This document shows, one piece after another, positions 6,424 to 57,368 of a stretch of 64,000 bases of DNA. The DNA comes from an uncultured Fibrobacteria bacterium. Its GTDB lineage: Bacteria; Fibrobacterota; Fibrobacteria; UBA11236. How positions within the stretch are numbered: the first letter of the stretch is position 1; each line of letters starts with the position of its first letter. The stretch lies in assembly GCA_963716395.1 (NCBI GenBank), contig OY970309.1, forward strand, positions 448,001 through 512,000. The letters are read 5' to 3'. The notes under the pieces were generated by a model, which searched no databases, had not been told where the DNA came from, and saw only the letters and a program-made list of their open reading frames with translations. The translations under genes and the position numbers were made by a program.

Positions 6424-6424
6424 T

Positions 6425-8369: not shown

Positions 8370-8401
8370 ACGGAACGCCACCTGAATCCGATGCCGACAG
8401 A

Positions 8402-10743: not shown

Positions 10744-10807
10744 CATGGGAATGCTTTTTATTACTTTTTTCTAAGTTGTTATTATTTGCTCTTGCTGAAA
10801 AATTGGT

Positions 10808-11695: not shown

Positions 11696-11772
11696 AACTC
11701 ATACTCTAACGAAAGTAAACCGAAGTATTGTAACATATTAATTACAGTTTTAGTCGAGTTTAGACTTAGTAT

Positions 11773-40900: not shown

Positions 40901-43190
40901 CCTGGGTGGTCAGGTTGGCGGCCAACTGGTTCACGTTGTCGGTTAGCGCCTTCCAGGTGCCGGAAGCGCCCGGCACGCTGGCCTGGCCGCCCAGCTTGCC
41001 TTCGACGCCGACTTCGCGCGCCACCGTGGTGACCTGATCCGCGAAAATATCGAGCGTGTCGATCATGCCGTTGATCGTGTCGGCCAGGGCCGCGATTTCG
41101 CCCTTGGCCTCGAAAGCCAGTTTCTGCTTCAAATGCCCCTTGGCCACCGAGGTCACGACCTTGGCGATGCCGCGCACCTGATTGGTCAAATTGCCCGCCA
41201 TGAAGTTCACGCTGTCGGTGAGTTCCTTCCAGATTCCACCCACCCCGCCCACCTGGGCCTGGCCGCCGAGATTGCCCTCGGACCCGACTTCGCGCGCCAC
41301 GCGCGTCACCTCCGACGCAAACGAATTCAGTTGGTCGACCATGGTGTTGATGGTGTTTTTCAATTCCAGGATTTCGCCTTTGACATCGACGGTGATCTTC
41401 TTCGACAAATCGCCGTTGGCCACGGCCGTGGTGACCTGGGCGATGTTGCGCACCTGTCCGGTGAGGTTGCTGGCCATGAAATTCACGTTGTCGGTCAAAT
41501 CCTTCCAGGTGCCGGCCACTCCCTGCACATAGGCTTGGCCGCCCAGCTTGCCTTCGGTGCCCACCTCGCGCGCCACGCGCGTCACTTCGGAGGCAAAAGC
41601 GCGCAACTGATCGACCATGGTATTGATGGTGTCTTTGAGCTGCAAAAATTCGCCGCGCACGTCGACGGTGATCTTCTTCGACAAATCGCCGTTGGCCACC
41701 GAGATGGTGACTTCGGCGATGTTGCGCACCTGCGCCGTCAAATTGCTGGCCATGGAATTCACGTTGTCGGTCAAGTCCTTCCAGGTGCCCGACACGCCTT
41801 TCACCTGCGCCTGGCCGCCCAGCTTGCCGTCCGTCCCCACTTCCCGCGCCACGCGCGTTACCTCCGATGCGAACGAATTCAACTGATCCACCATGATGTT
41901 GATGGTGTCTTTGAGCCCGAGGATTTCCCCTTTCACGTCCACCGTGATCTTCTTCGACAGATCGCCGTTGGCGATGGCGGTGGATACTTCGGCGATATTG
42001 CGCACCTGCGCCGTCAGGTTGCTGGCCATGAGGTTCACGTTGTTGGTGAGAACCTTCCAAATGCCCGCCACGCCTTCCACCTCGGCCTGGCCGCCCAGCT
42101 TGCCGTCCGTCCCCACTTCCCGCGCCACGCGCGTCACCTCCGACGCAAACGAATTCAACTGATCCACCATGATGTTGATGGTGTCTTTCAACTCGAGAAT
42201 TTCACCTTTGGCTTCGGCCGTGATCTTTTTGGACAAATTACCGTTGGCCACGGCCGTAGTCACTTCGGCGATGTTGCGCACCTGCGCCGTCAGGTTACCC
42301 GCCATGGAATTCACGTTGTCGGTCAAATCTTTCCAGGTGCCGGCCACCCCCTTCACTTGCGCTTGGCCGCCCAGCTTGCCATCCGTGCCCACTTCCCGCG
42401 CCACACGCGTCACTTCCGACGCAAACGAATTCAACTGATCAACGGTGGCATTGATGGTGGTTTTCAATTCCAGAATTTCGCCCTTGGCCTCCACCGTGAT
42501 CTTCTTGGACAAATCGCCCTTGGCAATGGCCGTGGCCACCTCGGCGATGTTGCGCACCTGCCCGGTGAGATTGCTGGCCATGAGGTTCACATTGTCGGTG
42601 AGATCCTTCCACGTGCCCGATACGCCGCTCACTTCGGCCTGGCCACCCAGCTTGCCTTCGGACCCCACTTCCCGCGCGACACGCGTCACCTCGGACGCAA
42701 ACGAACTTAAGCGGTGCACCATGGTGTTGACGGTTTTGGCGGTGCGCAGGAATTCGCCGCGCAGGGGCTGGCCTTCGGATTCGAGGTTGACCGTCTGCGA
42801 AAGGTCGCCGTTCGAAACCGCGCCGATGACGCGCGACATTTCCCGGGTGGGCCAGACGAGATCGTCTATCAGATTGTTGAGTGAGTCGACGCTGGACGAC
42901 CAGGCCCCCTCCACCGGCCCCAAAGCGATACGCTGGTGGATTTTTCCCTCTTTGCCCACGGCCCGCAGAACCTTTTCCAGTTCCCCCGCCAGGCGGCGGT
43001 TCATGTCGAGCACTTCGTTGAAGGCGTCGGCGATTTTGCCGTCGATGCCCGTCCACCCTTCCCGCAAGCGCGCGTTGAAATCACCTTGGCGGAACGACTC
43101 CAACGCCGCCAGCAGTTTGCTTTTGTCGAGGCCGGCCTGTCCATTTTGGGTGAAAGGTTCCATGGGAAGGGGCAGGGTTTTATGCGGCAT
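37956..43190 (-). CDS. Poly-HAMP hybrid histidine kinase (HAMPn-GAF-HisKA-HATPase-3xREC; OsaA/group III-like)
   Basis: 92-aa HAMP repeats, [35 protein letters not shown], three receiver domains; no TM helix. Confidence 0.95.
40850..43000 (-). repeat. 276-bp coding tandem repeat (poly-HAMP)
   Basis: Seven conserved (R/T)VAREVG..G.LGGQA units plus one degenerate unit; antisense ORF starts at 41617/41893/42169/42445 show the 276-nt period. Confidence 0.9.
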
Positions 43191-43222: not shown

Positions 43223-43639
43223 TCAGTCTGAGGCGCCGGCTTTTTCCTGCGGCGCCGTAGGCAAGATTTCGCGCAGCTTTTGCAACAACAGGGAAGGGGC
43301 AAAGGGTTTTTGCAGAAACTCCACCTTCGCGGCCACGATGTCTTTGACCACCTCTTCGTCGTTGGTATAACCGGACATGAAAATGATTTTGAGATCGGGG
43401 TACAACCGGAGCAGGTGTTGCGCCAATTGGCTTCCATTCATTTTCGGCATGACCAAATCGGTAAGCACCAAATCCGGCATTTTGCCGGCGCCCACGGCGG
43501 CCAGAGCCGATTCCCCGTTGGCGGCTTCCAGCACCCGGTAACCCGCATATTGCAGAACCTCGCGCAGCATGGTGCGGAGAATGCTTTCGTCTTCCACCAC
43601 CAGAATCGTTTCCCGGCTGGGGGTTTTCTCCGAAGTCAT
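43223..43639 (-). CDS. Single-domain response regulator
   Basis: ETILVVED, LTDLVMP, FMSGY, LQKPF. Confidence 0.9.
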   Translation of the reverse strand: MTSEKTPSRETILVVEDESILRTMLREVLQYAGYRVLEAANGESALAAVGAGKMPDLVLTDLVMPKMNGSQLAQHLLRLYPDLKIIFMSGYTNDEEVVKDIVAAKVEFLQKPFAPSLLLQKLREILPTAPQEKAGASD

Positions 43640-43652
43640 GGGCTGGGCCTTC

Positions 43653-43868
43653 TTATCGAGGTGAGGGTTCCGCCAGGGCGCGGGCCATCTGTGCAAACCC
43701 GCGCCCCCACGCCTGGATGTCATCAACGGGCGTACTGGAAACTTCGGCCAAATTCTGTGGGCCCTCTTGGCGACGAAACCACCTCAAAATGAAAGGGCGG
43801 CCTGGGATCTCCCCATCCGAATATCCGCGCGGACGGGTGCCGGCGGCAGCTTGTTCGGCGAATGTCAT
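43653..43868 (-). CDS. Small ORF resembling the C-terminal (PAC) half of a PAS domain
   Basis: GAAGGGGG RBS before ATG 43868; RWFRRQEG..AEVSSTPV...GFAQMAR parallels WVRKDG...PL...GFAQVTR in the upstream PAS protein. Confidence 0.5.
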   Translation of the reverse strand: MTFAEQAAAGTRPRGYSDGEIPGRPFILRWFRRQEGPQNLAEVSSTPVDDIQAWGRGFAQMARALAEPSPR

Positions 43869-43900: not shown

Positions 43901-44863
43901 TCAAGGACGTCCGGTCAGCACGCCCGCGATTTCCGCCGCCTTCTTGTTGACGTAGATGACCGTGTCACCACGTGTGATTACAATCACTGCTTCTTTCAAT
44001 TTGCGAGGCGCCAAATCCCAATTCTCCCGGATCAAGCCGGAACCGGCTGCGCCCTTCTCCCCGGACTCCCGTATAGCCAGGACGAATCCGTTCACCGTTC
44101 CCTGCAAACTGTAAACGGGTGACAAAGCGGATTCGACAAAGACGCGTACTCCGTCATTACGCAGCCACCATTCCCGTTGGCGGGAACACCCCTCCTCCTT
44201 GGCTTGGTTCAACCAGGCAGAAGGTTTGCCGAGTCTTAAATCTTCTTCGGTAAAAAAATGGCTGAGGGGCCGCCCGATGATTTCATCGGATCGATAACCC
44301 GTCATCCGCTGCGCGGTCGCATTCCAGTTGGAAACGCGCGCTTCGGCGTCCAACGAGAATACTGCGGAGTCCGGCACGGAATCGATCAGAAATTGATATT
44401 GCTGTTCGACCTGCCAAAGGCATTCGGTGGAACGCTCCAGCGCCTCCTGCGTCCTCCGGGCCAGAGTCAAGTCGCGGGTCACCTGGGCAAAACCGGTCAC
44501 GCTTCCCGCGCCGTCCGCCATCAAGGGAAGAATGTGGACCTTGGCCCAAAACCGGGTTCCGTCTTTGCGTACCCACCATTCCTCGTCTTCGGCGCGGCCT
44601 TCGCTCAAGACTTGCGCCAGGAGCCGCCGGGCTTTGCCGGTTTCGCGGCTTTCTCTGGTGTGGAACTTGTCGAAAGGCTGATTCAGAATTTCATCGGAAC
44701 TGTAGCCGTACATGCTTTCGGCTTCTGCGTTCCAACCGACCACATGGCCATCAAGGTCGAGCATGCAAACCGAACCGTCCATTAAGGCTGCCGCCATGCG
44801 TTGGAAAAACTCGGCGGTTTGGGCCGACGCATTTCCAAGTTCTTGGGTGGCTACGTTCAGCAT
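43901..44863 (-). CDS. PAS-domain-only protein (two PAS plus truncated third PAS)
   Basis: Two WN..A..M.GY..DEI / R(K/N)DG PAS-PAC units; ends EAVIVI...VIYVNKKAAEIAG and then stops. Confidence 0.8.
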   Translation of the reverse strand: MLNVATQELGNASAQTAEFFQRMAAALMDGSVCMLDLDGHVVGWNAEAESMYGYSSDEILNQPFDKFHTRESRETGKARRLLAQVLSEGRAEDEEWWVRKDGTRFWAKVHILPLMADGAGSVTGFAQVTRDLTLARRTQEALERSTECLWQVEQQYQFLIDSVPDSAVFSLDAEARVSNWNATAQRMTGYRSDEIIGRPLSHFFTEEDLRLGKPSAWLNQAKEEGCSRQREWWLRNDGVRVFVESALSPVYSLQGTVNGFVLAIRESGEKGAAGSGLIRENWDLAPRKLKEAVIVITRGDTVIYVNKKAAEIAGVLTGRP

Positions 44864-44897
44864 GGCCTTAATAGTTTTACAAAGATTTTACCTCAAG

Positions 44898-44927
44898 ATT
44901 ATGATCTAATTTTCCGTAAAGCGTCAA
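44898..44927 (-). promoter_or_regulatory. Sigma-70-like promoter for the signalling cluster
   Basis: Minus strand TTGACG, 18 bp, CATAAT, about 35 nt before ATG 44863. Confidence 0.5.
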
Positions 44928-45304
44928 GTCAACAATATTTTGCGGTTATTTCACTGAAATATGAAGCGAAATTGTCATTAAGGCATTGCCAACGCGTGCC
45001 AACCAACCTAAACCGTCGGCATCCGTCTGCACAAAAATCCGTCTTTGAATGGCGAAAATCGATTCCCGGCAGTTCTACGCTTGACCATTTTCGATGGCCC
45101 AAAACATAGGTCCGGAGTGCACGCCATTTTTCCAAGTTGAAAATGACGCTCTAACTCACGATTGTCCTAGGGGTGGTCGAGGCATTAACCTTCGCCCGCT
45201 AAATCTGGGTCGATATTGCTGGGAAAGATTTCCAATGAATTTTATGCCTTGCCACAAAAGGCAAAGCGGAGAAATTGGTGTCGGGCGGGTTTTTAAAATT
45301 GCAT

Positions 45305-45334
45305 AAAAAAGGCATCGGATTACCGATGCCTTTT
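45305..45334 (-). terminator. Intrinsic terminator of the barrel-ThuA operon
   Basis: AAAAAA-GGCATCGG-ATTA-CCGATGCC-TTTT. Confidence 0.9.
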
Positions 45335-45360
45335 CACTCCGCTTTGGCTGGAAACCTTTT

Positions 45361-46575
45361 TTAGAGCATTACCCGCTGGGTATAAGTCTTCTTGGCGGAT
45401 TTAACTTGAACAATGTAGAGGGACGGACCTTTGAGATTGGAGAAGTAATAGTCTTTATCTCCGCTTCCCATACCGCGCGCAACGTTCTCGCCCGAAAGCG
45501 TGTATACGTTTACTTCGTTTCTTCCCGCTCCGTCAACATGAACATAGAGGACACCATTCTTGTTCTGCGCTTGTAGAATTCCTCCTACGCTGGCGTCCGA
45601 GGAACGGACGGATACGGGTTGGTCGACGTACAATCCCGCGGCCCATTTGAGTGACTGCCAAAGCCAGCCTTTGGTCATCAGAGTATGCGAAGTATCGGAA
45701 AATACCGTGTCGCCCTGCTGCTTGGCCCCTTGGCCAACGGTTTCGGGAGCGTGATTCGAACTCGTACCATCCCAGGCGCCGGTTTCATGGCCCCGGGCGA
45801 AATAGATGAAACGCCCTTGGGGTCCGCCAGTTGAATCGGGAGGCAAATGATAGGCCCACATCACCGGATGCCCAACGCCCATTGCAGACCCGGATGGAAC
45901 CTGATAAGTGGTTTCATCGATCGTCATCAGCACATCGGCAATGGGGCGGGGATCCGGGCTGACGGAATACCATTCATCGGGATAGGTGAAATGGGTGTTA
46001 TGAGGAAAAATGGACCGGATGGAATCATACTCGGGTTTCATCGACCGCACCACTCCACTGGTTTTCAAAGTGTCCCATTGAACCTGGGCATTTGGATCGG
46101 AGCCCCAGTTGGAATGCTGCGTGAAAATTGCTCCGCTGAGAACTGAATCCCGCAACCAAGGCCAAGTATTGTTGTGATCCAATAATCCATGAATTCCTAC
46201 GCAACCGCCCCCGGCTTTCAAATAGCGCTGAAAAGCGTGTTGAGCTCCGGTATCGCCAACCGCACCAGCTCCGCCCACGCGGGTGCCGCCGTTGAAAACG
46301 ACCACATCATAAGTCTTGAGGCTGTCATCCGTAAAAACCTTATCGATATCCGCCTGGGTGGCGGGAATGGTGCATTTGAACCCGTACTTGGGTCCCAGAT
46401 AAGTATTATAATAGTTGGAGGTATAATTAATTTGATCGGTATGAACGAACCCGCCTGATCCGCATTCGTTGATGACCAATACTTTTTTCAACTGATACGT
46501 TTTGGCGTACCCGCTACCCAACGCCATGGCTACAAGGCCGGCACCAAGAAATGATTTGTTTATCAAGTTATACAT
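45361..46575 (-). CDS. Secreted ThuA-domain protein with C-terminal sorting-like domain
   Basis: Signal peptide; GFVH, YDVVVF, AFQRYLKAGGGCVGIH, DEWY, DETTY, HPVMW, GRFIYFARGH; tail VYTLSGENV...LYIVQVKS; GGAGAGG RBS. Confidence 0.85.
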   Translation of the reverse strand: MYNLINKSFLGAGLVAMALGSGYAKTYQLKKVLVINECGSGGFVHTDQINYTSNYYNTYLGPKYGFKCTIPATQADIDKVFTDDSLKTYDVVVFNGGTRVGGAGAVGDTGAQHAFQRYLKAGGGCVGIHGLLDHNNTWPWLRDSVLSGAIFTQHSNWGSDPNAQVQWDTLKTSGVVRSMKPEYDSIRSIFPHNTHFTYPDEWYSVSPDPRPIADVLMTIDETTYQVPSGSAMGVGHPVMWAYHLPPDSTGGPQGRFIYFARGHETGAWDGTSSNHAPETVGQGAKQQGDTVFSDTSHTLMTKGWLWQSLKWAAGLYVDQPVSVRSSDASVGGILQAQNKNGVLYVHVDGAGRNEVNVYTLSGENVARGMGSGDKDYYFSNLKGPSLYIVQVKSAKKTYTQRVML

Positions 46576-46669
46576 GGTATTCCCTCTCCCGAAACCCCTA
46601 TTTAGAGATATGAGTGATCTTTTTTTGTCCTTCCGTACCAACCGGCATTCACCCACTTAACCTATCGCA

Positions 46670-48007
46670 TTAAATCCCAAACTGCAAGCGGAAAAGGTAA
46701 TACCACTGGCTGGGACGTTGCGTTATCGAAAGCCTGGTCAGAACGTTGTTCTGATCGATACCGCGCGTCCAATCGCTGGCCGCTTGCGCGAAAATCGACA
46801 CCCCTTTAACAATTGTCTTTTCCGCGTAAACAGCCCATTTATTGTCCTGAGCCTTAATTGCTTCCGTAGGATTGCTGCCGGATTGGTAGTCCGAGAGGCT
46901 GATGTCCCAATAGGGCGCATCGTTATCGTTTATCTGGCCAGTGCTATTTAAAAAACCCCACTTTCGGTACTCGTATTCAACTGAAAGCACATCGAAAAAA
47001 TTAAATGTGGGCAGATTAAACCCAACCATCAAGGGCACACGCTGCATCAGGCTGTTGTAATACAAGGGGTAATTTTTAATTCCCAAGATCGCGGCCTCGC
47101 CGTATAACTTCAAACCATCATGGCCAATCCACGGGTTGTCCAAGAGCGCTCCAAAATTAAGAGAAGCATGCGCCATGAGTTTTACACCCTGAAACGTAAA
47201 GCGATTTCCCGAATCTATAGGAGCATTCGCAAAGTCGATGACCGAATCTCCCTGAATCAGATATTCTCTTCCCTTTAATACGCTGGGCTTGAAAGAAATC
47301 AAGTGGGCAAATTCAGCGCCAGTCCCTAAATCAAAAAAATCAGACGGCTTATAATCCAAAACAAGACTGGGACTCAAATCATGATTTGGCTCAATGTCGC
47401 GCTCGATAAAAACGTTAAAATCCGTGCTTAATTTTCCGTCCAAAAAGCTCCCGTTGACCCGCAAACCAGAGGCCATATACAGTGCACTGTTCATGAGGCT
47501 CCAGCCAGCCGTTCCGGTCACTTCATAACCCGGATACGTTCCGTCGCGAAGCAAGAACTCCCCCAAATCCTTGGCGTCGGAATTGTATTTGTAAGGAAAG
47601 TATCCGAACTGGAAAGTCCAAGACGGATTGTTTACATCCCCGAGCTTATAGATTCCCTGCGCCTGACCCACGCCGGGGCCGAAACGCAGGCTGCGGGAAG
47701 TTGCGTTATTGGGATTCTCGGGGAAAGAGTAATAGAACAGCCCTCCCACCCCAATTTTGATGGCCAGTCGCTCGGCCACCGTGGTGGTTTGATTTAAATA
47801 AACGGCGGTTCGCTGAAGGACGGCCCCATCCGGACTAATGTCGTTTGCCGGATCCGCAATTCCTCCTTTGACGACCTGCCCAATATCGATGTATGACCCG
47901 ATCTCCAAAGGAGAACGATCCACCTGGACATCGGCAAACGAACCGAGGGGCAAGGCGCAAATCCATACCGCTGCAAAAACCGCTTTCATGATTGTTTGTT
48001 TTTTCAT
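46670..48007 (-). CDS. Putative OM beta-barrel, paralog A
   Basis: Signal peptide; GYFPYKYNSDAKDLGEFLLR..YPG, YGEAAILGIKNYP, RVPLMVGFNLPT, ends WYYLFRLQFGI. Confidence 0.75.
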   Translation of the reverse strand: MKKQTIMKAVFAAVWICALPLGSFADVQVDRSPLEIGSYIDIGQVVKGGIADPANDISPDGAVLQRTAVYLNQTTTVAERLAIKIGVGGLFYYSFPENPNNATSRSLRFGPGVGQAQGIYKLGDVNNPSWTFQFGYFPYKYNSDAKDLGEFLLRDGTYPGYEVTGTAGWSLMNSALYMASGLRVNGSFLDGKLSTDFNVFIERDIEPNHDLSPSLVLDYKPSDFFDLGTGAEFAHLISFKPSVLKGREYLIQGDSVIDFANAPIDSGNRFTFQGVKLMAHASLNFGALLDNPWIGHDGLKLYGEAAILGIKNYPLYYNSLMQRVPLMVGFNLPTFNFFDVLSVEYEYRKWGFLNSTGQINDNDAPYWDISLSDYQSGSNPTEAIKAQDNKWAVYAEKTIVKGVSIFAQAASDWTRGIDQNNVLTRLSITQRPSQWYYLFRLQFGI

Positions 48008-48025
48008 AGTCAGTCCCGTCTTGGA

Positions 48026-49441
48026 TCAGATGCCCAAATCCAACCGCACGAGGTAATACCAATCGCTGGGCGTATTAATAATGGGCTCAGGCAAGGGAAC
48101 GAGAACGCCCGGGCCCACATTGGCGTCATACCCGCGCAGATAATCGCTGGCCGCCTGCGCATACAAGGTTAAACCGGGTACCAAGGTTCGCTTCAGATAA
48201 ATCGACCACTTAAAAGCCCGGTGCGATAAAGAATTCTTATCATACGGGGCAATTACGGACCCATCGTTGGGGTTTACACCTCCGTATAAGAGGTCGTGGT
48301 AACTCTCGCCCACAGGTTGGATGCCGGGAATGGGAACGGCGTCCTTCCAGTAGGACCAAAATATGCTGTAGGGAAAGGCGGGTTTGAGATACTCAACCTC
48401 AAGAGAAAGCTTGTCCAACAGTTTGAACGTGGGAAAATTAAAGCCCACCATGACGGGCATGCGATTGCGAATATTACTGTAATAATAGGGGTAATCCTTT
48501 ATTCCCAAAATCGCCGCTTCGGAGTAAAGCTTCAAATCATCCGGGCCGAGCAGGTCGGATTGTAAAAGGGATTGAAAGTTGATTGAAATTCGGGCCATCA
48601 CCTTGGTAGCCCGAAAGGTGTAATTCGAGTAACCCGTGTCATTTATATTTGTAACAACGGTATCGTCTGCATAACGATTCATGGGCTGGGTCGTGACTTC
48701 TCCCGTGGCCGTGGAATAGACCGGTGTAAGCTGCGGTCCGGTGGGGGTCGTGCTGCTGGGCTTAAATGAAATCAGATGCGCGAAAGCCACACCCCCGCCC
48801 AATTCGATTACGGAATTAGGCTTGTAAGAAAAGACATAAGCCGGGGTGATGTCTCCCGTCGGCTCAATACCGCGCTCCGTATAAGCCACAAGACGATGGG
48901 TAATCGGACCGGTATGCAGTTCGAGTTCCGCGCCTTCCAACTGCATCTCGGTGGAATTGATCTCGCTCAGCCCTCCCGTAACCATGATGGTGGGATAAGC
49001 CTCATCACGCAACAGGTACTCTCCCAGATTCGTTGCGTCCGGGTTGTACTTGAACGGAATGATGCCGAATTGAAAGCGACCGATTGGATCATCCACGTCG
49101 CCTAATTTGACGGACCCCAAAGCTTCGGAAACGGTGGTGCCGAATTTGATGGTTCTTTGATATTGAAGGCCGATGGAATTGGGAATGGTGTAAAAAAATA
49201 CCCCTCCCAATCCGATGGCAAAATCGAGCCGATCGCCAACCTTAACCTCTTGGGACAGGGAGAGAGCGGTTGTCTGAAGCATTTCACCGTTACTTACCTG
49301 GGGATAATTGGTATGAATGATTTGGCCCGCATCAAAAGTGACATCTGTCTGCAATGGTTTCCGCACAACATCGGTTTGCGCCAAAGAAAAAACCGTAAGT
49401 GGTACGGCCATGATCAGAAATCGCCCGATGCGATAACTCAT
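48026..49441 (-). CDS. Putative OM beta-barrel, paralog B
   Basis: Signal peptide; PFKYNPDATNLGEYLLR..YP, YSEAAILGIKDYP, RMPVMVGFNFPT, ends WYYLVRLDLGI. Confidence 0.75.
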   Translation of the reverse strand: MSYRIGRFLIMAVPLTVFSLAQTDVVRKPLQTDVTFDAGQIIHTNYPQVSNGEMLQTTALSLSQEVKVGDRLDFAIGLGGVFFYTIPNSIGLQYQRTIKFGTTVSEALGSVKLGDVDDPIGRFQFGIIPFKYNPDATNLGEYLLRDEAYPTIMVTGGLSEINSTEMQLEGAELELHTGPITHRLVAYTERGIEPTGDITPAYVFSYKPNSVIELGGGVAFAHLISFKPSSTTPTGPQLTPVYSTATGEVTTQPMNRYADDTVVTNINDTGYSNYTFRATKVMARISINFQSLLQSDLLGPDDLKLYSEAAILGIKDYPYYYSNIRNRMPVMVGFNFPTFKLLDKLSLEVEYLKPAFPYSIFWSYWKDAVPIPGIQPVGESYHDLLYGGVNPNDGSVIAPYDKNSLSHRAFKWSIYLKRTLVPGLTLYAQAASDYLRGYDANVGPGVLVPLPEPIINTPSDWYYLVRLDLGI

Positions 49442-49573
49442 AAAGCTTCCAACCTTATTTTTCAGAACAAACCATTAGCGGACAACACTTGATAGCCCGC
49501 CCCGCTTGCTAGAACAAAAATTTCCGGAAAGTACCAAGATTTTTCTTTTGGTTGTGTTTGTAGATGGAATCAA

Positions 49574-49601
49574 AATGTAAGCCTCGTTTTGAGATTTTCA
49601 A
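49574..49601 (-). promoter_or_regulatory. Possible sigma-70 promoter for the leftward barrel operon
   Basis: Minus strand TTGAAA, 16 bp, TACATT. Confidence 0.3.
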
Positions 49602-50242
49602 GTGCTATTTCAAAATTCCGGAGTATCCGCCGATTTTCATCGATTTCTCCTTGATCGCATAGAACCGATTTCGAATGTGCCGCTTTCGTTGTTACCCATG
49701 CTGGGTTTGTGCCGCAAAGCGGGTAGGTGACCATGCAATCCGGCATTCCGTCTTCGCATCACAAATGGTACAACGATGCGCTTAAAAGCCCGAAGTGCAT
49801 GAGAAAATCCGGCCCAAGGGGAAAATTCGGCGCCTGTAAATTGTCCTGTGGAGGGAGCTGCCGGAAAAGAAGGGTTTGTCTACCCAGATTGCGGGAACAC
49901 GCTCGATTCGATCTCCCGGTTCTTTCTAGATGGGGCGAATTCGAAATATTCTCGTCGCGACCATGCGGGAGAAGGAGAACAGCCCCCTGGGTGAAAGGGA
50001 CCTTCATTTCGAATTGCGAATTAGAGTTTGATTTTGGAGAAAGGGATGAAGTCTCGCCGCAGAAATTGTAACGAGCCTCCATGGAAGCTCAAGCTGAGAA
50101 TTCGGAATTTGAAAAGGGCTTCGATTTCCCCGGCTACACTCTGGCTTTGAATATAAATTTAGGAAACCTCGGTAAAAATTCGTCGTTTTTAGGCGAGCGG
50201 GGCTACTCTGTTTCGTTTAGAGTTTTCAAAAAAGGGGAGAGC

Positions 50243-51520
50243 GTGGAAAATCGGAGTCGAGCGCATAAATTTACGGTGAGCTTACTGGTATTGGGTTCGG
50301 TGGCGGCTTGGGCGCAAGCGCCTTACACCCCTCCGGCATCGGGGGATCTTTCCTGTAACACAGACACTTCCGCCATCAATCAGGCGGATACCCTCGTCAC
50401 CTCTCCGGAAATCAGCGGAACGTATACGGGTTTCGACAAAGTTTTTGACGGGATGTCTTTTAAGGGGTGGTGGCAAAACTGCCATACGGGCCACTCTTCC
50501 TCGGATCCGACGCATGGGGCAATTTGGCGCATCGCGCCGGATCAGCATGCGATTTATTCCACGCAACGCTCCAGCGGTGGCAACGAAGTCGGCGGAATTT
50601 TGGAGACGCATAAAAAGCAGACCAGCTACGAAATAATTTTCGACATCTGGCCTTCCTACGGAGATGACGGCGGTTTGTTCAATCGGGTCACCCTCGATGG
50701 GCAATGCTTTCAAACGGTTTTGGATTATATCGACGGCGGCTCCTACGGCGGTACGTGGGGAGAAGGCGGATATTTAAGCCGGGATCTTCGTCAGTTCATG
50801 TTTAACGGCAGCGACAGCGTTTTGACGATTCCAGGCAATGGCGGCGCCAACTGGACGACTTATACGCAAAGCATGAACCCGACCTCCTTTGGCTGTTCCG
50901 CCGGCGGTTGCACCCAAGCGGATTGGAGAAAACTCTGGGACTTATACGGTTGGAATACTACCCGAATCAAATTTTGGGGAGGACTGACGGCCGCCCAACC
51001 CATGGTGCATATGCAATCATGGTTCTTGACCAAAACCACTCCGCGTCAATGGGTTCCCCTTTGGACGGATTCCCTGACCTTGACGACCTCGCAAATGGCC
51101 CAGTGGCCGACAAACCCGCTCGGCTTCCAGGTTCATGGAGGCGGGCGTTTCGGCGGCGCCAACGGAAACTGGTACAAGAACATTTATCTGCGCCAACTCG
51201 ATCCCGCCACCGGCAACCCATTAACCGGACCGGTCACGCCCAGTACGGATCACAATCCCGGCCAGGATCCACCCGTCGCCATCATGAATCCTGCGGGCTC
51301 GCCCCGATTTCAGATTCACAGCGCCCCGGACGGATTGATCGGCACTTTGAATCTCGATTATAAAATTCGGGTCAGCGACCTGAGCGGCCGCGTATTGGAA
51401 AGGTTTTCCGGACATCCCGGCAGCTTCCACTACGTTTTCGGCGCCAAGACCCGGGGGCTTCTCTTCGTAGAAGTGCAAACCGAACGGGGTACCGAACTCT
51501 TTCGGATCAGCCGGATGTAA
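50243..51520 (+). CDS. Secreted DUF1080 (3-keto-disaccharide hydrolase-like) protein with C-terminal sorting-like domain
   Basis: GGGGAG RBS plus GTG; signal peptide; FDGMSFKGW, GGILET, WNTTRI, LGFQVHGG, WYKNIYLRQL; Pro/Thr linker; tail VSDLSGRVL...GLLFVEV. Confidence 0.8.
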   Translation: MENRSRAHKFTVSLLVLGSVAAWAQAPYTPPASGDLSCNTDTSAINQADTLVTSPEISGTYTGFDKVFDGMSFKGWWQNCHTGHSSSDPTHGAIWRIAPDQHAIYSTQRSSGGNEVGGILETHKKQTSYEIIFDIWPSYGDDGGLFNRVTLDGQCFQTVLDYIDGGSYGGTWGEGGYLSRDLRQFMFNGSDSVLTIPGNGGANWTTYTQSMNPTSFGCSAGGCTQADWRKLWDLYGWNTTRIKFWGGLTAAQPMVHMQSWFLTKTTPRQWVPLWTDSLTLTTSQMAQWPTNPLGFQVHGGGRFGGANGNWYKNIYLRQLDPATGNPLTGPVTPSTDHNPGQDPPVAIMNPAGSPRFQIHSAPDGLIGTLNLDYKIRVSDLSGRVLERFSGHPGSFHYVFGAKTRGLLFVEVQTERGTELFRISRM

Positions 51521-51707
51521 TCCGCTGATTTTTTTGCCCGGTGAAAGAAGATCATTCTTTCACCATTTTCAATTTCGTCCGGTTTCTTGAATAATGACGA
51601 TTGGGATACACACGGGGAAATGATGCTTTGGATTTCAAAAACCCTTTGTTAAATTCGGCACACTTCATGGAGACATTTCGGGCTTGCCTGGCAAAGGCCG
51701 ATTCTTG

Positions 51708-53114
51708 ATGCGAGCGGCTTTCCTGCTTTTGATACTCGGTTTCGCTCCGGCGCTGGCGGGTGAGGTTCCTTCCTTGCAATTCCATGGTCAGGGCTGGATG
51801 CAGGTGGGCCGCGTCATGCATGTCTCCGATTCCCTGCAAAGCAACAATTCCATTATCGACCTGGACAAGGCTTGGCTGCAAAGCGTCGGCGCGCAAGTCA
51901 CCGCAAGTTCGGAGATCAGCGACCATTTCGACGCCGCTTTCGGCCTGGGCGTTTACCAGGTCAATCACTCCCTGGCGACCAACGGGGGAAGCCAACCTCT
52001 GTTCCTGGCCGTTCCCATCTTCGAGAGTTTTATCACCGAAGCGAGGCTGACTTATTTTCTCGGAGAGAAGGAAAACCCGGGCCTGAGCGTTTCGCTCGGC
52101 AGTTTTCCCTTCATCTATAATCCCGACGTCAAGGATTTGGGTCTGTACCTGTTGCGGGGACCCGTGTATCCCGGCCTGCTCATGGGCGGGTTTCAGGATT
52201 TCAGCGCCGATTCCACCAAAAGCAATATCCTGGGCGCCCGAATTCACCAGGCGATCGGTGATGTGTTTTCCCAGGATCTCATCCTCATGAACGAGAGAGA
52301 TTTGCCGCCGACCTTCGATTGGAGTCTGGCTTACGTGGCGAGCCTGCAGCCGATGCCGGGCTTGGAATTGGGGGCCGGGGTGAATTTTTATCGGCTCATC
52401 CCGTACAAATCGAAATTGGAGACACCCGGTTATTTGGTGCAGGACGGCCTTAAAAGCGTCACCGACAAATACCCCTTATTGGATTCGGCCGGAAATCCGG
52501 TGGTGGATGCCAGCGGCAATGTCGTGCTCGACACCGCGCGTTTCGTTTATCTCACGCACCAGGGCATCAAGCTGATGGCACGCGGAAGCGTGGACTTCAA
52601 GACTTTGCTCGGACTGGGTTCCCCGGCGGCGGATGATTTCAAGTTTTACACCGAAGCGGCCATTCTCGGCTTAAAAAACTACGGCGAGACGTATAATGAC
52701 ATTTGGCAGCGCATCCCGGTCATGGCGGGTGTGAACTTTCCGACATTCGGGGTGCTGGATTATCTGTCCCTGGAAGTGGAGTGGTATGGCTCTCCCTATC
52801 CGGACGATATCGCCAATCTTGGCTACTACAACGACGTGGCGGATTGGACCTTGCGCAATTTATCGCGTCCCATTCCTTCGCCGGCGCCGGTGGCGGGCCC
52901 CTACGCGGATTCGACCCGGGATAATTGGAAATGGGCGCTTTATCTGCAGAAGGATGTCCGCCATCATCTCCGCTTCATCGCTCAAATCGCCGACGATCAT
53001 TATCGGCCGCCGCATATGGCGACCGGTTTGATTACGACCACCGGCGGCACGGCCCAAGCGTTCACGACGCTTAAGGACTGGTACTTCATGTTTCGCCTAG
53101 GGTATTTCTTTTGA
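51708..53114 (+). CDS. Putative OM beta-barrel, paralog C
   Basis: MRAAFLLLILGFAPALA signal; GSFPFIYNPDVKDLGLYLLRGPVYPG, LELGAGVNFY, RIPVMAGVNFPT, DNWKW, ends RLGYFF. Confidence 0.78.
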   Translation: MRAAFLLLILGFAPALAGEVPSLQFHGQGWMQVGRVMHVSDSLQSNNSIIDLDKAWLQSVGAQVTASSEISDHFDAAFGLGVYQVNHSLATNGGSQPLFLAVPIFESFITEARLTYFLGEKENPGLSVSLGSFPFIYNPDVKDLGLYLLRGPVYPGLLMGGFQDFSADSTKSNILGARIHQAIGDVFSQDLILMNERDLPPTFDWSLAYVASLQPMPGLELGAGVNFYRLIPYKSKLETPGYLVQDGLKSVTDKYPLLDSAGNPVVDASGNVVLDTARFVYLTHQGIKLMARGSVDFKTLLGLGSPAADDFKFYTEAAILGLKNYGETYNDIWQRIPVMAGVNFPTFGVLDYLSLEVEWYGSPYPDDIANLGYYNDVADWTLRNLSRPIPSPAPVAGPYADSTRDNWKWALYLQKDVRHHLRFIAQIADDHYRPPHMATGLITTTGGTAQAFTTLKDWYFMFRLGYFF

Positions 53115-54454
53115 ACCGGGCTCGCCGCGGCATGTCGCGGGGTATGCGCATCGCAGGCCTGACCGGGATGGCCTCCGCCCTCTTGTTGGGTATGAATAGC
53201 CGCGCCGATGACTTGCAATTGGATTTTCACGGGGCGGGTTGGACCCAGTTCGGACGCATCGAACATAGTTTCACGCCTCCGAGCCTGGCTTCGAACAATT
53301 ACAACAGCAATTGGATCGAGTACGCCGGCGGACTGATTTCGGCCACGGCAAAAATCGACTCGAACTGGGAAGGCGCCATGGGCCTGGGAGCCCTCCAGGT
53401 GCATCTAGCCCGCGGCAGCATCAACAACGCCAATATCTGGTACCCTTTTCTGGTTCCTTTCGTCGCGGAAGCCAGAATCACCTATTCGCATGACCTGTTC
53501 TCCGCGAATGATCAATTACGGCTTACGGCCGGCACCTTTCCCTACACCTACAATCCCGACGTAAAGAATCTCGGCTTCTATCTCTTGCGGGGATATGTGT
53601 ATCCGGGGATTTTGCAATCCGGTTTTGAAATTCCCTTCAATATCACCGGCGGCATGGCGCGTTACCAATCCGGAGATTTTCGCAACGATTTGATTTTGAA
53701 ATCGGAAACGGATGATTACCCCCTGTACGATTTTTCCTTGGCGGACGTCATCAATTACCAGGTTGCACCGGGACTCGAACTGGGCGCCGGAGTGAATTTT
53801 TACCGCCTGATTCCGCAGAACTCCAAGGTGACCTCGCCTCCCACGAATTGCCTGACCGGGGACCTGGGCCCCTACGCCGAATTGGGGCAGGCCGATCCTT
53901 GCGGCATCATCGACACCGTGAACGGGGTCAAAGATACGGTGGGCGGCTCTTTGGCCGGTACGAAATTGATGGGCCGCTTTCACCTGGATCCCAAGGCATG
54001 GTTCGAGAATGCCGACGGAGGGCCCTGGGGCAAAAACGATTGGGTGATCTACGGCGAAGCCGCCATCATCGGTCTCAAGGATTACCCCAAGGTGTATAAC
54101 AATATCCTCCGCCGCATTCCGGTGATGGTGGGATTCGACTTTCCCACCTGGGACCTGCTGGATTATTTCTCGCTGGAAGTCGAATACTACGCCGATAAAA
54201 ATTCCAGCGACGAGATTACCGCCGAGAACGGCTCGTGGGTGCCGGCGGTTCACCCCGGTTACAACTATGCGCGCGATGATTGGAAATGGTCCTTCAATTT
54301 GGCCAAGGTTTTCTTGGGGCATGTGAAGCTCTCGGCGCAAGTGGCGGACGATCATACGCGTTTGGGCGGCTACCACGACGCGGCGACCGGAGTCGAGGTA
54401 TTCAGCACACCGACGGACTGGTATTGGATGGGAAAACTCGCCTTTTTCTTTTAG
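53111..54454 (+). CDS. Putative OM beta-barrel, paralog D
   Basis: GTFPYTYNPDVKNLGFYLLRGYVYPG, LELGAGVNFY, RIPVMVGFDFPT, DDWKW, ends KLAFFF; start uncertain. Confidence 0.78.
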   Translation: MNRARRGMSRGMRIAGLTGMASALLLGMNSRADDLQLDFHGAGWTQFGRIEHSFTPPSLASNNYNSNWIEYAGGLISATAKIDSNWEGAMGLGALQVHLARGSINNANIWYPFLVPFVAEARITYSHDLFSANDQLRLTAGTFPYTYNPDVKNLGFYLLRGYVYPGILQSGFEIPFNITGGMARYQSGDFRNDLILKSETDDYPLYDFSLADVINYQVAPGLELGAGVNFYRLIPQNSKVTSPPTNCLTGDLGPYAELGQADPCGIIDTVNGVKDTVGGSLAGTKLMGRFHLDPKAWFENADGGPWGKNDWVIYGEAAIIGLKDYPKVYNNILRRIPVMVGFDFPTWDLLDYFSLEVEYYADKNSSDEITAENGSWVPAVHPGYNYARDDWKWSFNLAKVFLGHVKLSAQVADDHTRLGGYHDAATGVEVFSTPTDWYWMGKLAFFF

Positions 54455-54472
54455 GAAATCCAAGGAAGATTC

Positions 54473-55834
54473 ATGGACTTTTTCGGCTCGTACCATCGGA
54501 TTATCGCCAAGGCGGGATGGATCCTGGTCACAGCCTCCGCATTTGCTTGCGCGGCCGGGGAAGGCGTTCTAACCTATGGCGGCGCGGGCTGGATTCAGGC
54601 CGGCAGTGTTTTTCACAGCTCCGACACCAGCGGCGGCAAAGACTTCAACGGACTCGGCCTTTATTCTTCGGGGGCGCAGCTTTCTCTGGACTACAAACAT
54701 GCGGAGGATTTGGAAGTCGCCGTGGGATTGGGTGTTCTCACCAACAATTATCTGAACGGAGGATTGGGCAACGGGGGTTACGCGCCGCCCAACATGACGC
54801 CTTACGTATCGGCAGCCAGTTTAACCTATACCTTCTTGGACAAGGAAAGTTCCAAGTTGTTCGTGCGCGGAGGCCTCTTCCCCTTCGATTATAATCCCGA
54901 AGTCCGGAATCTGGGGTTGTTCCTTCTGCGCGGACCCGTGTATCCCGGTTTTATCATCGACGGTTTCGAAAACAAGTATGTCGAGCCCATCGCCAACATG
55001 CTGGGGTTGCAACTCCATCATGAAATCGGGAATTTTCAGGAGGATTTCATTCTCAGTAGCGAAACCGAAGTCTACCCGTTTTTCGACCTTTCGCCGGCCT
55101 ACATCGCGGGGTATCAATTCGGGAAAGCTTTGCATGTGGGGGCCGGGGTCAATTTTTATCACCTGATTCCGATTGACGACTCGCTGACGTCGGATCCGAA
55201 ATGGTTTTTTCTCGACACCCTTAACGGTCATCCCGACACGACTTTTCTTTCCTTCGCGGGCGTGAAACTGATGGCGAATGCCTCGTTCGATCCCAAGGTG
55301 TTTTTTGACGACATCGGAAACTTGGGACCGGAAGACCTGATTGTATATGGGGAAATCGGGTTGAACGGGATCCATAACAGCCTCGCCTATCAAAAACTTT
55401 ACGGGGACACCTGGCATCGCATGCCGATGATGCTGGGCTTCAATTTGCCCGTCTTTCATTTCCTGGATCATCTGGCCCTGGAAGTGGAGTGGTATGGCGC
55501 ACCCTTTGTGGACGACATGAAGGGTTTCAACCACACCGCGGGAAACCACGAGTCCCCGGCACCCTTGGATCCGAATACTCCCAATTACCCCCAACCCAAC
55601 ACTCCGCTGAACCGCGCCGTCTATACGAACGCTACGCGGGATAACTGGAAATGGTCGTTGCAGGGTGAAAAGGTGCTGCTGAACCATATCAAAATCACCT
55701 TTCAACTGGCGAACGATCATTATCGTCCCGGAATCTATACCGGTGACAGCGATAATTCCCCTCCGGGTTCGGAAGCCATTACCATCACCCCCAACGATTT
55801 GTATGGGATGTTGCAGTTGTCATACTTTTTTTAA
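54473..55834 (+). CDS. Putative OM beta-barrel, paralog E
   Basis: GLFPFDYNPEVRNLGLFLLRGPVYPG, GAGVNFY, RMPMMLGFNLP, DNWKW, ends QLSYFF. Confidence 0.78.
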   Translation: MDFFGSYHRIIAKAGWILVTASAFACAAGEGVLTYGGAGWIQAGSVFHSSDTSGGKDFNGLGLYSSGAQLSLDYKHAEDLEVAVGLGVLTNNYLNGGLGNGGYAPPNMTPYVSAASLTYTFLDKESSKLFVRGGLFPFDYNPEVRNLGLFLLRGPVYPGFIIDGFENKYVEPIANMLGLQLHHEIGNFQEDFILSSETEVYPFFDLSPAYIAGYQFGKALHVGAGVNFYHLIPIDDSLTSDPKWFFLDTLNGHPDTTFLSFAGVKLMANASFDPKVFFDDIGNLGPEDLIVYGEIGLNGIHNSLAYQKLYGDTWHRMPMMLGFNLPVFHFLDHLALEVEWYGAPFVDDMKGFNHTAGNHESPAPLDPNTPNYPQPNTPLNRAVYTNATRDNWKWSLQGEKVLLNHIKITFQLANDHYRPGIYTGDSDNSPPGSEAITITPNDLYGMLQLSYFF

Positions 55835-56039
55835 ACCGGGAAGGTGCCTTCCCCCCTTTGACGATGAAGTACGGCTGGTTCGCAGCGTGGAGCGGCGCTT
55901 CAAACGGTGGGATGTTCGCATTCGCCCACCCCTCCTCATCGCCTCATCCAATCCAGGCTTATTCCCGGGCTGCGGCCGTCGGCTTGCAAAACCCGGCGTG
56001 AAAATTCTCTTTTAAGGTTATCTCTAAACTTCAGCTTTC

Positions 56040-56163
56040 GGAGCCGGGCCCGAACCTGTCGATCTCGTTTCCGGTCCGCTTGCGGAGGAGGGCCGAATCG
56101 TGAGACGGATCGCAGGCAGAGTCGTAACCGGAAAGCGGTGAGGATAGGTACCCTTAAGGCTGC
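56040..56163 (+). ncRNA. Candidate structured RNA / 5' leader upstream of holB (unassigned)
   Basis: CCTGtCGATCtCGTTTC (56055) pairs with GAGACGGATCGCAGG (to 56116); inner CGGTCC/GGGCCG; side hairpin ACCG-GAAAG-CGGT; closing AGCC/GGCT. Confidence 0.35.
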
Positions 56164-56183
56164 GCATTGTCTCCCCTCAACCC

Positions 56184-57368
56184 ATGAACCTCCAATTCTT
56201 CCGCACCTTGGGACAACGCGATACGCGCAACCTGCTGGCCCAGGCCTTGACGCAAAAACGCTTTCCCCATGCCCTGCTCCTGCACGGCGAACCCGGATTG
56301 GGTCAGCAGGCCCTTCTGCTCGATTTGGCCCAAATTTTGGCCTGCGCAGCGGAGGATCTGCGCCCTTGCCGGAATTGCGCGGCCTGCCGGGCCTTTGAAC
56401 GCGGAGCCCATGAAGGCACGCATTATCTCCTGCCCCTGGAGAAAAAAGACAAGGGCGGTGACGGCGAATTGGAGGCCGCGCAAGTGGAGGAAATGGCGGA
56501 ACAAATCCTTGCCTTGCACGCCCAGCCCTACGGATTCGGCCGTCCGGAAAAAGCCTGGGTATCGGTGGCGCAGGTGCGCGAAACCGTGGGACGCCTGGCC
56601 TTTGCCGAAAATCGCAGCCGCGCGCGCACCGTGATCATTCCCTTTCTCGAAGCGCTGCAGGCCGAAGCCGCCAATGCCTTGCTGAAAACCCTGGAAGAGC
56701 CGCCTGCGGAGGTGTACTTTCTCATCGCCAGCGAACACCGCGCGGCTCTGCTGCCCACTTTGCTTTCCCGTTGCCTGCATCTGGCGCTGGCGCCGCTCCC
56801 GCCCGCCGATTTCAGCGCCGCCGCCGCCGCGTTGGCCGAGTCGGGCCGACCCCTGCCCGCGCGGCTTCTGCCCTTTGCCGAAGGTGCGCCGGGGGCCTTG
56901 CTCGATTTGCGGGAAGACGGCGAGGAATTGCTGGAAGAGTCCGCCCGCTTTCTCTCTGCGGCCGCCGCGGACGACTGGCGGGTTTTCGCGGAATACGTCG
57001 ACCAAGGCCTGCCCGCGCAGGGCGCGGCCGCCGCGTCCCGGCTGCTGGCTTTTCTGCTGCGCGTCGCCCGGCTGGGACAAAAACTGCGCGCCGCCGTTGC
57101 CGAACCGAAACGGGAGCAGAACGCCCCGCCGGAGACGGGTTTTACCGCGCGGGCCTTGGAGCACTTCGGCTGGGATACGTCTCTTGTGAGTTACCTTGGG
57201 CCCTGGGAAGAGATCGAAGACTTTCCCGCCTTCGTCGGGTTCTTGGAAGCCGCCTTCCGGGCGATACGTCAATATTGCCGCCCGCAAAACGCCTTAATCG
57301 GGTTGTATTTCGAATACCAACTCAAAACCCGTTCCCGATCCGCCGCCGGCGGAGTGGCGGCGGCATGA
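56184..57368 (+). CDS. holB: DNA polymerase III subunit delta'
   Basis: PHALLLHGEPGLG, C..C..C..C zinc site, AANALLKTLEEPP, LLPTLLSRC. Confidence 0.85.
   Translation: MNLQFFRTLGQRDTRNLLAQALTQKRFPHALLLHGEPGLGQQALLLDLAQILACAAEDLRPCRNCAACRAFERGAHEGTHYLLPLEKKDKGGDGELEAAQVEEMAEQILALHAQPYGFGRPEKAWVSVAQVRETVGRLAFAENRSRARTVIIPFLEALQAEAANALLKTLEEPPAEVYFLIASEHRAALLPTLLSRCLHLALAPLPPADFSAAAAALAESGRPLPARLLPFAEGAPGALLDLREDGEELLEESARFLSAAAADDWRVFAEYVDQGLPAQGAAAASRLLAFLLRVARLGQKLRAAVAEPKREQNAPPETGFTARALEHFGWDTSLVSYLGPWEEIEDFPAFVGFLEAAFRAIRQYCRPQNALIGLYFEYQLKTRSRSAAGGVAAA

Follow-up and report, generated by a model that had tools for sequence, protein, structure and literature searches.

Porin-like barrels in ordered arrays beside secreted ThuA and DUF1080 proteins: a candidate outer-membrane component of sugar-utilisation loci in Fibrobacterota

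The window analysed here is a stretch of 64,000 nt from the genome of an uncultured Fibrobacteria bacterium (contig OY970309.1, positions 448,001 to 512,000). Its positions 45361-55834 hold seven long open reading frames (ORFs) in two divergent arms. In transcription order, the leftward arm encodes barrel B, barrel A and a ThuA-family protein, and the rightward arm a DUF1080-like protein followed by barrels C, D and E, a layout that agrees with an earlier note made from the sequence of this DNA. The five barrels are paralogs, and we consider it fairly likely, from their predicted fold and their neighbourhoods, that they are substrate-specific, 16-stranded channels of the porin type and provide the outer-membrane (OM) uptake component of Fibrobacterota sugar-utilisation loci. 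The window carries one module each of two recurrent types: barrel-barrel-ThuA, and a DUF1080-like gene followed by three barrels.

Predicted fold and sequence family of the five paralogs

The AlphaFold2 model of barrel A, built on a 45-sequence alignment, has a mean predicted local distance difference test score (pLDDT) of 85.1 and a predicted template modelling score of 0.84. DSSP assigns it 16 long strands (35-47 through 435-444), with short turns alternating with long loops. Foldseek against the PDB returned OmpM1 first (E 1.2e-11), then OmpF, OmpE36 and other general porins. In an independent search with VIA-align, the top 13 matches were 16-stranded porins (Z 15.5-19.1), among them OmpM1 (Z 19.1), DcaP (18.8), OmpT (18.6), Omp32 (18.5), OprB and Omp-Pst1 (18.4 each) and the chitoporin VhChiP (18.3). 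Lower scores were obtained for Wzi (14.5), OccD2 (13.4), maltoporin and PelB (12.8 each), AlgE (12.4) and ScrY (12.1), and the lowest named ones for FadL (9.2), the PorV chain 6h3i_F (9.1, rank 46th) and the SusC chain 5fq6_B (8.6). Porin clusters were also the nearest named ones in a protein-language-model search (score 0.93), which we take as a lead only. Overall, the OM beta-barrels proposed in the earlier note find support in a model that predicts the classical 16-stranded porin fold, unlike the other barrel types which that note had named.

The loop between strands 5 and 6 of the model (37 aa) lies at the position of porin loop L3 and carries the motif FPYKYNPD..LG.YLLR..YPG. We mapped 45 family members onto the model and found this loop to be the most conserved long one (3.16 bits per column). 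Strands and L3 reach 2.2-3.3 bits per column, whereas L1, L2, L5 and L7 are least conserved (1.4-2.0 bits), with lengths ranging from 33 to 80 aa for L5 and from 31 to 99 aa for L7; the earlier observation that variation is concentrated in a few loops is thus borne out. As modelled, the L3-position loop is conserved while the outer loops vary, just as textbooks describe for porins.

Barrels A (46670-48007, 445 aa) and B (48026-49441, 471 aa) lie on the minus strand, as position 2 and position 1 of a ThuA-linked pair; barrels C (51684-53114, 476 aa), D (53111-54454, 447 aa) and E (54473-55834, 453 aa) lie on the plus strand as positions 1, 2 and 3 of a triplet. They align over their full length, with identities to A of 45% for B and of 30%, 25% and 27% for C to E. 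The family profile scores on the five at E-values of 1e-130 to 1e-175, far beyond chance (B, 5.6e-157; C, 7.7e-137; D, 4.7e-136; E, 2.6e-130). The alignment of the five contains 52 invariant columns, and all shared motifs listed in the earlier note fall within them; YNS in A, where the other four barrels have YNP, is a small departure. Invariant residues are found in the motif at the L3 position (G135/P138/Y141/N142/L148/G149/L152/L153/R154/Y158/P159) and, further on, at G228/G230/F233/L236/I237, K276/M278, Y302/E304/G309, R323/P325/M327/G329/P333, D339/E344/E346, K390/W391 and Q408/A410/D412/R415. Judged by eye, the N-termini of all five resemble Sec signal peptides, again as claimed earlier.

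At the other end, C, D and E terminate in FF, and A and B in GI. Throughout the genome, barrels of the ThuA clade end in G-I, G-M or G-L-F and those of DUF1080 triplets mostly in Y-F-F, with one Y-S-L. The two barrel subfamilies thus differ in the terminal beta-signal usually read by the BAM machinery.

The earlier note had allowed for the five proteins matching a known family (porin, PorV, Wzi or AlgE); no Pfam, NCBIfam or PDB sequence match was found. None of the five barrels has a Pfam match at E ≤ 0.01 (none of the seven locus proteins scanned matches a porin family) or an NCBIfam match at E ≤ 1, and the sequence profile gave no match to PDB chains at E ≤ 10. A Pfam scan of the 45 members at E ≤ 10 yielded eight chance-level families and not one member with any porin model or PorP_SprF. 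Hidden Markov models of Porin_1, Porin_4, Porin_O_P, OprB, LamB, Porin_5 and other porins likewise gave no sequence match.

Several other barrel types were considered and rejected. Shuttle barrels of the PorV/FadL type, which serve the T9SS (type IX secretion system), have 14 strands; the model has 16, and PorV (Z 9.1) and FadL (Z 9.2) score far from the top porin (Z 19.1). Polysaccharide-export barrels such as Wzi (Z 14.5) and AlgE (Z 12.4), which have 18 strands and belong to loci of polysaccharide synthesis, also fall below the 16-stranded porins, and the neighbouring genes listed are catabolic. A SusC-like, TonB-dependent transporter is disfavoured by the SusC score (Z 8.6), by the length of 445-476 aa, where such transporters with their 22-stranded barrel have roughly 700-1100 aa, and by the lack of a Plug or TonB_dep_Rec match. 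The earlier note had been right that the locus contains no TonB-dependent receptor, SusD or TonB: Pfam scans detected no SusC, SusD or TonB gene there. In the whole genome there are seven Plug-domain matches, six of them over the cut-off and none in a barrel locus, and no SusD_RagB match.

The family is large. Counted as clusters at 50% identity, an exhaustive profile search retrieved 1012 at E ≤ 1e-3, of which 887 reach E ≤ 1e-10 and 670 reach E ≤ 1e-30; a word-indexed search retrieved 244 proteins at E ≤ 1e-3 among 8000 scored candidates. Among the 120 matches listed, all are named 'hypothetical protein' in their source but one ('opacity protein-like surface antigen'), organism names are of Fibrobacteres metagenome-assembled genomes only, and there is no precomputed Pfam domain. 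We found a family match in 58 of 151 sampled genomes of Fibrobacterota, with frequencies that depend on the taxonomic family (f3, 0/56; f1, 11/11; f7, 8/8; f13, 26/39), and Fibrobacterota is the commonest phylum of the nearest clusters in a language-model atlas. As far as seen by this phylum-wide sampling, with no direct search of other phyla, the barrel family is known only from Fibrobacterota. The term 'lineage-specific' used earlier therefore holds at the scale of the phylum but not for the window's genome alone. The full-text literature, without supplements or subscription journals, yielded no description of the barrel family or of a module of ThuA or DUF1080 with porins.

Association with carbohydrate genes

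The window's genome, assembled as one contig of 3.75 Mb, has a GC content of 59.8%. It encodes 13 intact and two broken barrel copies at seven loci, accompanied by T9SS-tailed ThuA at three loci, by DUF1080 at four modules and by a glycoside hydrolase of family GH27 at one locus. A second barrel-barrel-ThuA module, with a T9SS tail on ThuA, is found at 636 kb, where a tailed DUF7133 protein and a TIM-barrel protein resembling xylose isomerase are also encoded. DUF1080 is followed by three barrels at 1411 kb and by one barrel at 1811 kb and at 710 kb, the latter with an MFS sugar transporter nearby. At 1149 kb the order is LacI, GH27 alpha-galactosidase, barrel, galactokinase and SSF symporter, and at 3226 kb two broken barrels precede a weak ThuA match with a tail. 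Conversely, three of the five ThuA loci of the genome adjoin barrels, as do three of 12 matches to PF06439 (DUF1080), a count that excludes the sub-threshold copy in the window.

Three details of these loci deserve mention. At 3226342-3229469 (L024) the two barrel genes are split into five fragments, with one in-frame TAA, and the ThuA match is weak (30.9 bits) and bears a T9SS tail; this locus has the look of a pair module in decay. Putative regulators of the DUF4423 family adjoin two of the DUF1080-barrel modules (1407739-1408593 in L020 and 1808168-1809043 in L022), and no DUF4423 gene is found in the window's locus. The DUF7133 protein beside the 636-kb module (640959-643325, L019:12959-15325) has 788 aa and a CHU_C-type T9SS tail; the TIM-barrel protein of this locus belongs to the same broad class as the epimerase/lyase found in 3-keto-glycoside operons of Bacteroides.

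We then compared the coordinates of barrel, PF06439 and PF06283 (ThuA) matches in five genomes of the same order, which belong to families f1 and f2. In 34 of 41 barrel clusters, DUF1080 (18) or ThuA (16) lies within 1.5 kb; no cluster has both and seven have neither, three of these seven being within 500 nt of a contig end. Thirty-one of the 34 adjacencies involve matches over the Pfam cut-off and three involve matches below it. The usual order is DUF1080 followed by barrels, or barrels with ThuA last. Viewed from the enzyme side, 19 of 50 DUF1080 matches and 17 of 40 ThuA matches are adjacent to barrels.

Eight genomes of five other families, with 5-28 barrel matches each, served as a distant sample. 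These genomes have few ThuA and DUF1080 matches (0-2 per genome), and neither occurs within 1.5 kb of a barrel in any of the eight; the closest approach is that of a ThuA gene 5.8 kb from a barrel, seen in two genomes of the same genus. The tie to ThuA and DUF1080 is therefore specific to one order. Forty distant loci (L054-L093) were taken for closer inspection, of which 38 gave barrel ORFs with a greedy ORF caller (L069 and L084 were dropped). These 38 loci contain 41 arrays: 35 single, four double and two triple. Among 32 scanned same-strand upstream neighbours, GH3 was found in seven, GH116 in four, GH2 in three, GH31, GH30, GH20 and GH38 in one each, besides one MGH1-like hydrolase. The 31 downstream neighbours scanned include MFS (3), GH116 (3), GH2 (3), GH27 (2), GH29 (2) and GH59 (2). 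These tallies cover the 25 commonest of 44 upstream and of 45 downstream families. Hence the tie to carbohydrate enzymes elsewhere that the earlier note anticipated extends across the genome, the relatives and the phylum. The family-wide partner is glycoside catabolism in general, including typical periplasmic exo-glycosidases and inner-membrane sugar transporters, and the pairing with ThuA and DUF1080 is a specialisation of the window's order.

An unexpected partner that is not a glycosidase turned up in four of the 32 upstream neighbours: a di-haem cytochrome c peroxidase (CCP_MauG) to which a beta-propeller of the YNCE type is fused or adjacent, with an NCBIfam hydrazine-synthase-beta-like match (E 1.6e-36).

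Evolution of the barrel arrays

In a tree of the 13 intact copies of the genome, the window's triplet and the one at 1411 kb match barrel by barrel: C groups with the first, D with the second and E with the third, each with a support of 99 in the Shimodaira-Hasegawa-like approximate likelihood ratio test (SH-aLRT). Given this pairing by position and the 39% identity of the DUF1080-like protein to its paralog at 1410 kb, the enzyme and the three barrels were duplicated as one unit. A broader, midpoint-rooted tree holds 68 barrels, namely these 13 and 55 copies from 20 of the 41 clusters of relatives; the 20 were picked as arrays, and single-copy clusters of relatives lie outside the tree. Its deepest split (98/98 SH-aLRT) separates 27 rows, 25 of them linked to ThuA and two from an array without an enzyme match nearby, from 41 rows, 40 of them linked to DUF1080 and one to GH27.

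In the main DUF1080 clade, which has 32 rows and a support of 100, copies cluster with others of the same gene position and not with others of the same genome. Position changes state three times on these 32 rows, the minimum being two; L096 and L103 (six rows) were left out, as they form a separate clade in which positions do not resolve. Barrel C belongs to a position-1 clade with 11 rows from four other genomes and a second locus of its own genome (95 SH-aLRT), D to a position-2 clade (100) and E to a position-3 clade (99). In the ThuA-linked pairs, positional orthology is seen within three sub-lineages (95-100); A groups with position-2 copies (98-99) and B with position-1 copies (95-99). 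Pairs and triplets also arose several times independently, for instance in L104, L105 and L096/L103. The tandem duplication suggested in the earlier note is evident in both trees.

That a fixed order was kept through speciation and through duplication of the whole module speaks for triplet copies that are not interchangeable. C, D and E would then be non-redundant and could assemble into a hetero-oligomer, perhaps a heterotrimeric porin. A complex prediction for C (residues 26-476) and D (33-447), run with separate alignments and without controls, scored 0.03 and 0.02 against a mark of 0.32 and says nothing either way. A more elaborate scheme, which we put forward tentatively and regard as doubtful, holds that C, D and E form an obligate heterotrimer with an order older than the two-family split. 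It would have been copied whole with a T9SS-displayed DUF1080 protein that docks on it or feeds it, as a passive counterpart of SusC/SusD, and the ThuA-linked pairs would follow the same plan in a second form.

Secreted partners and proposed route of uptake

The ThuA-family gene (45361-46656, minus strand) ends the leftward arm and encodes a secreted protein whose C-terminal sorting domain is of the T9SS type A kind. It matches PF06283 with 105.9 bits (cut-off 33.4, E 4.6e-30, profile positions 1-194 of 209) and TIGR04183 with 26.1 bits (cut-off 23) over residues 369-430. The DUF1080-like gene (50243-51520, plus strand, in an ORF from 50081) opens the rightward arm and encodes a secreted protein with a ConA-like jelly roll and a C-terminal beta-sandwich tail. 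Its full ORF gives no PF06439 match; the shortened frame alone scores 17.0 bits over profile positions 1-187, below the cut-off of 26.8. The protein is, over its full length, 39% identical (E 2e-100) to the 1410-kb paralog, which passes the PF06439 cut-off at 46.2 bits and precedes the sister triplet. The best matches of its model (pLDDT 75) are DUF1080 structures with E-values of 1e-9 to 1e-6 (4jqt, 3u1x, 8v31, 3osd (BT2157), 8tda and 3hbk; BT3469, BDI_1869 and an AL2 hydratase are included), followed by legume lectins and lectin domains of bacterial adhesins. By homology and by the ConA-like fold of this model, the window copy is a divergent protein of the DUF1080 family. Its TIGR04183 score (13.2 bits) is below the cut-off, and in the model residues 356-424 form a C-terminal sandwich of seven strands.

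SprA, the translocon protein of the T9SS, is encoded in the genome (94.7 bits), and 20 of the 50 T9SS tail matches listed in the genome exceed the cut-off. Tail-like C-termini are present at all five ThuA loci, three over the TIGR04183 cut-off and two below it. As only three of these loci adjoin barrels, the idea that barrels accompany every T9SS-tailed ThuA or DUF1080 gene was discarded. The two ThuA proteins of the pair modules in this genome show no detectable BLASTP similarity to each other (best E 0.44); the ThuA modules are thus old or diverse, unlike the DUF1080 modules.

We infer inward transport, a glycoside or oligosaccharide as substrate and a surface location of the enzymes. The tail-bearing ThuA and DUF1080-like proteins would be exported by the T9SS and would bind or process this substrate at the cell surface; the resulting product may then diffuse through the cognate porins, with the conserved, aromatic-rich L3-like loop as the putative selectivity constriction, and periplasmic enzymes and inner-membrane transporters would act next.

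Gene layout and flanking regions

Genes within the arms are tightly packed, from a 4-nt overlap up to gaps of ~30 nt depending on the choice of start; D, for instance, begins either with a 4-nt overlap with the C stop or within ~30 nt of it. The true start of the ThuA gene is probably the internal Met at ~46575, and that of the DUF1080-like gene is likely the GTG at 50243, which has GGGGAG upstream. The 801-nt divergent intergenic region (49442-50242) presumably holds the promoters of both arms. An Rfam scan of 44800-56500 gave a single sub-threshold Phe_leader match (26.4 bits versus 55), which was dismissed, and no match in the intergenic region, where a repeat search found two weak inverted repeats and nothing more. 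Neither promoter-like sites (10 observed, 10.1 expected) nor terminator-like sites (19 observed, 16.5 expected) exceed shuffled sequences in number. A consensus scan alone marks a 10-pair hairpin with a T-rich run (51540-51564, plus strand) between the DUF1080-like stop and barrel C; it is possibly an attenuator that sets the ratio of enzyme to porin, in a class of sites whose number is not above shuffles.

The flanks hold unrelated genes. To the left lie PAS, response-regulator and hybrid-kinase genes: a hybrid sensor kinase of 1744 aa (37956-43190, minus strand) with 7-8 HAMP repeats, GAF, HisKA/HATPase and three receiver domains, then a response regulator with a single domain (43223-43726) and, immediately left of the ThuA arm, a double-PAS protein (43901-44863). 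To the right lie genes for DNA polymerase III delta-prime, RecJ, DUF92, RmuC and RecC-like proteins. GC content is 41-50% in positions 1-12000 of the window and 55-68% elsewhere. The barrel and enzyme genes of the family modules have 47-59% GC each, against a genome mean of 59.8%. Accessory or transferred DNA may account for this, as may a biased composition of proteins that are secreted or reside in the OM.

Alternative explanations

Some observations speak against channels fed by surface enzymes. Barrels A and B end in G-I and not in the aromatic residue usual for OM barrels. The five relatives are kin, so that 34 of 41 clusters do not amount to independent events, and in the eight distant genomes the close pairing with ThuA or DUF1080 is absent. 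A link to secretion may exist, as in the same distant sample the T9SS type A tail is the single most frequent NCBIfam model (10 of 63 neighbours at E ≤ 0.01). Furthermore, the known context of ThuA and DUF1080 is that of periplasmic 3-keto-glycoside routes, in which ThuAB makes 3-keto-disaccharides in rhizobia and the DUF1080 member BT2157 is a 3-keto-disaccharide hydrolase (PMC8121099). Pfam scans of the locus found no dehydrogenase partner for such chemistry. The 3-keto-glycoside link of the earlier note was drawn from family names and found no support here, as these routes need a dehydrogenase.

The earlier note had offered two functions for the paralogs, oligosaccharide channels or anchors and shuttles for the tail-bearing enzymes. 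In its second form, the barrels would be cargo-specific T9SS partners that export, shuttle or anchor the neighbouring tailed ThuA or DUF1080 protein. There is precedent, as barrels of the PorP/SprF type are encoded beside some T9SS cargo genes in Flavobacterium and PorV acts as a shuttle. The near-obligate adjacency to tailed enzymes, seen in 34 of 41 clusters of the window's order, barrel clades that track the enzyme family, the duplication of the enzyme with three barrels as a unit, the presence of SprA and the prominence of T9SS tails among distant neighbours would all fit. We nevertheless think this quite unlikely, because porins match the model at Z 18-19 and the PorV chain and FadL at only 9.1 and 9.2, and none of the 45 members matches PorP_SprF at E ≤ 10. 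Tails also occur without barrels, at two of the five ThuA loci and at several DUF1080 genes (2182 kb, 1678 kb), and 53 of the 63 distant neighbours have no T9SS tail at E ≤ 0.01, including GH3 and GH2 exo-glycosidases, MFS and SSF transporters and a galactokinase operon. Of the two functions, the channel is favoured, since across the genome and the phylum the barrels have carbohydrate enzymes as neighbours, and the anchor or shuttle is the weaker one. Position in sugar loci could be without functional meaning if the proteins were general diffusion porins or structural OM proteins. The best fold matches do include OmpF, OmpU, Omp32 and the OM-tethering porin OmpM1, but 13 intact copies at seven loci, each beside sugar-related genes, the adjacency in the relatives and the dominance of glycosidases among distant neighbours make this very unlikely, and Pfam found no SLH or OmpA-type tether domain.

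A variant that keeps the channels assigns a different role to their partners: ThuA and DUF1080 proteins would be surface glycan-binding proteins that capture the substrate, in a porin-based analogue of SusD/SusC. It is consistent with the resemblance of the DUF1080-like model to legume lectins and adhesin lectin domains after DUF1080 structures, with a window copy too divergent for the Pfam cut-off, with the missing dehydrogenase for a 3-keto substrate and with a genome devoid of SusD. We rate it as unlikely, as solved DUF1080 proteins are enzymes, namely BT2157 (PMC8121099) and, by their PDB titles, 8v31, 8tda and 9fbe, which are hydratase/eliminase entries. Wzi (Z 14.5), PelB (12.8) and AlgE (12.4) among the fold matches could also point to exporters or assembly factors of a surface polysaccharide. 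Their scores are clearly below those of 16-stranded porins (Z 18-19), the neighbours are catabolic, and no glycosyltransferase or polymerase is among the neighbour families listed (the 25 commonest upstream and downstream), so we hold this to be extremely improbable.

Significance and comparison with known systems

OM glycan uptake is well understood in Bacteroidota (SusC/SusD) and for a few proteobacterial sugar porins, but not in Fibrobacterota, which are important polysaccharide degraders. For the window's genome, which has no SusD, the barrel family is a candidate answer. With ~1000 clusters and no Pfam or NCBIfam model, the family could help to find and delimit sugar-utilisation loci in metagenomes, as SusC/SusD marks polysaccharide utilisation loci. 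The strict pairing with secreted ThuA and DUF1080 proteins would place these poorly understood families at the cell surface, beside an uptake channel. With their fixed order and joint duplication, the triplets are a case in which a heteromeric porin encoded by one operon could be put to the test; none was found described in the full-text literature, only facultative mixed trimers of OmpC and OmpF.

The earlier note had called the locus a 'candidate new system', which overstates the case, as the predicted fold is a classical one and porins for sugars have long been known from sugar operons: the sequence family and its arrangement are new, but their kind is known, and the system is not new as a category. 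The closest parallels are OprB of Pseudomonas (4gf4) and VhChiP of Vibrio (5mdo), which share the 16 strands and the long third loop predicted for the barrels (Z 18.4 and 18.3 over 262-281 residues). OprB and ChiP are encoded within sugar-catabolic operons, as the barrels are in sugar loci. The barrels differ from them in having ~10% identity, no common Pfam family, ~100 additional residues and large L5 and L7 loops, and in occurring as 13 intact copies per genome, in ordered arrays of two or three with T9SS-tailed ThuA or DUF1080 partners. General trimeric porins (OmpF/OmpC, Omp32 and OmpM1 of Veillonella, 8bym) are the best overall fold matches; in contrast to OmpM1, the barrels have no SLH tether, and they belong to catabolic loci and not to housekeeping. 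Mixed OmpC/OmpF trimers are reported from E. coli (PMC5056734), but these are facultative and not encoded as an ordered operon.

Other known systems resemble the barrels in part. LamB maltoporin and the sucrose porin ScrY are likewise sugar channels in sugar operons, but they match the fold less well than 16-stranded porins do (Z 12.8 and 12.1), have 18 strands where 16 are predicted here, and LamB gives no Pfam match to the barrels. PorV and PorP/SprF are OM barrels functionally tied to tailed cargo, and some barrels of this type are encoded next to that cargo; the present family differs in strand number, shows no sequence match and also stands beside untailed proteins and transporters. In its logic, the arrangement resembles SusC/SusD of Bacteroidota, where an OM uptake component lies beside surface and periplasmic glycan-processing proteins and occurs in multiple copies per genome, with one set per substrate. 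The barrels have neither a Plug nor a 22-stranded TonB-dependent barrel nor a SusD, and transport through them would be by passive diffusion and not energised by TonB.

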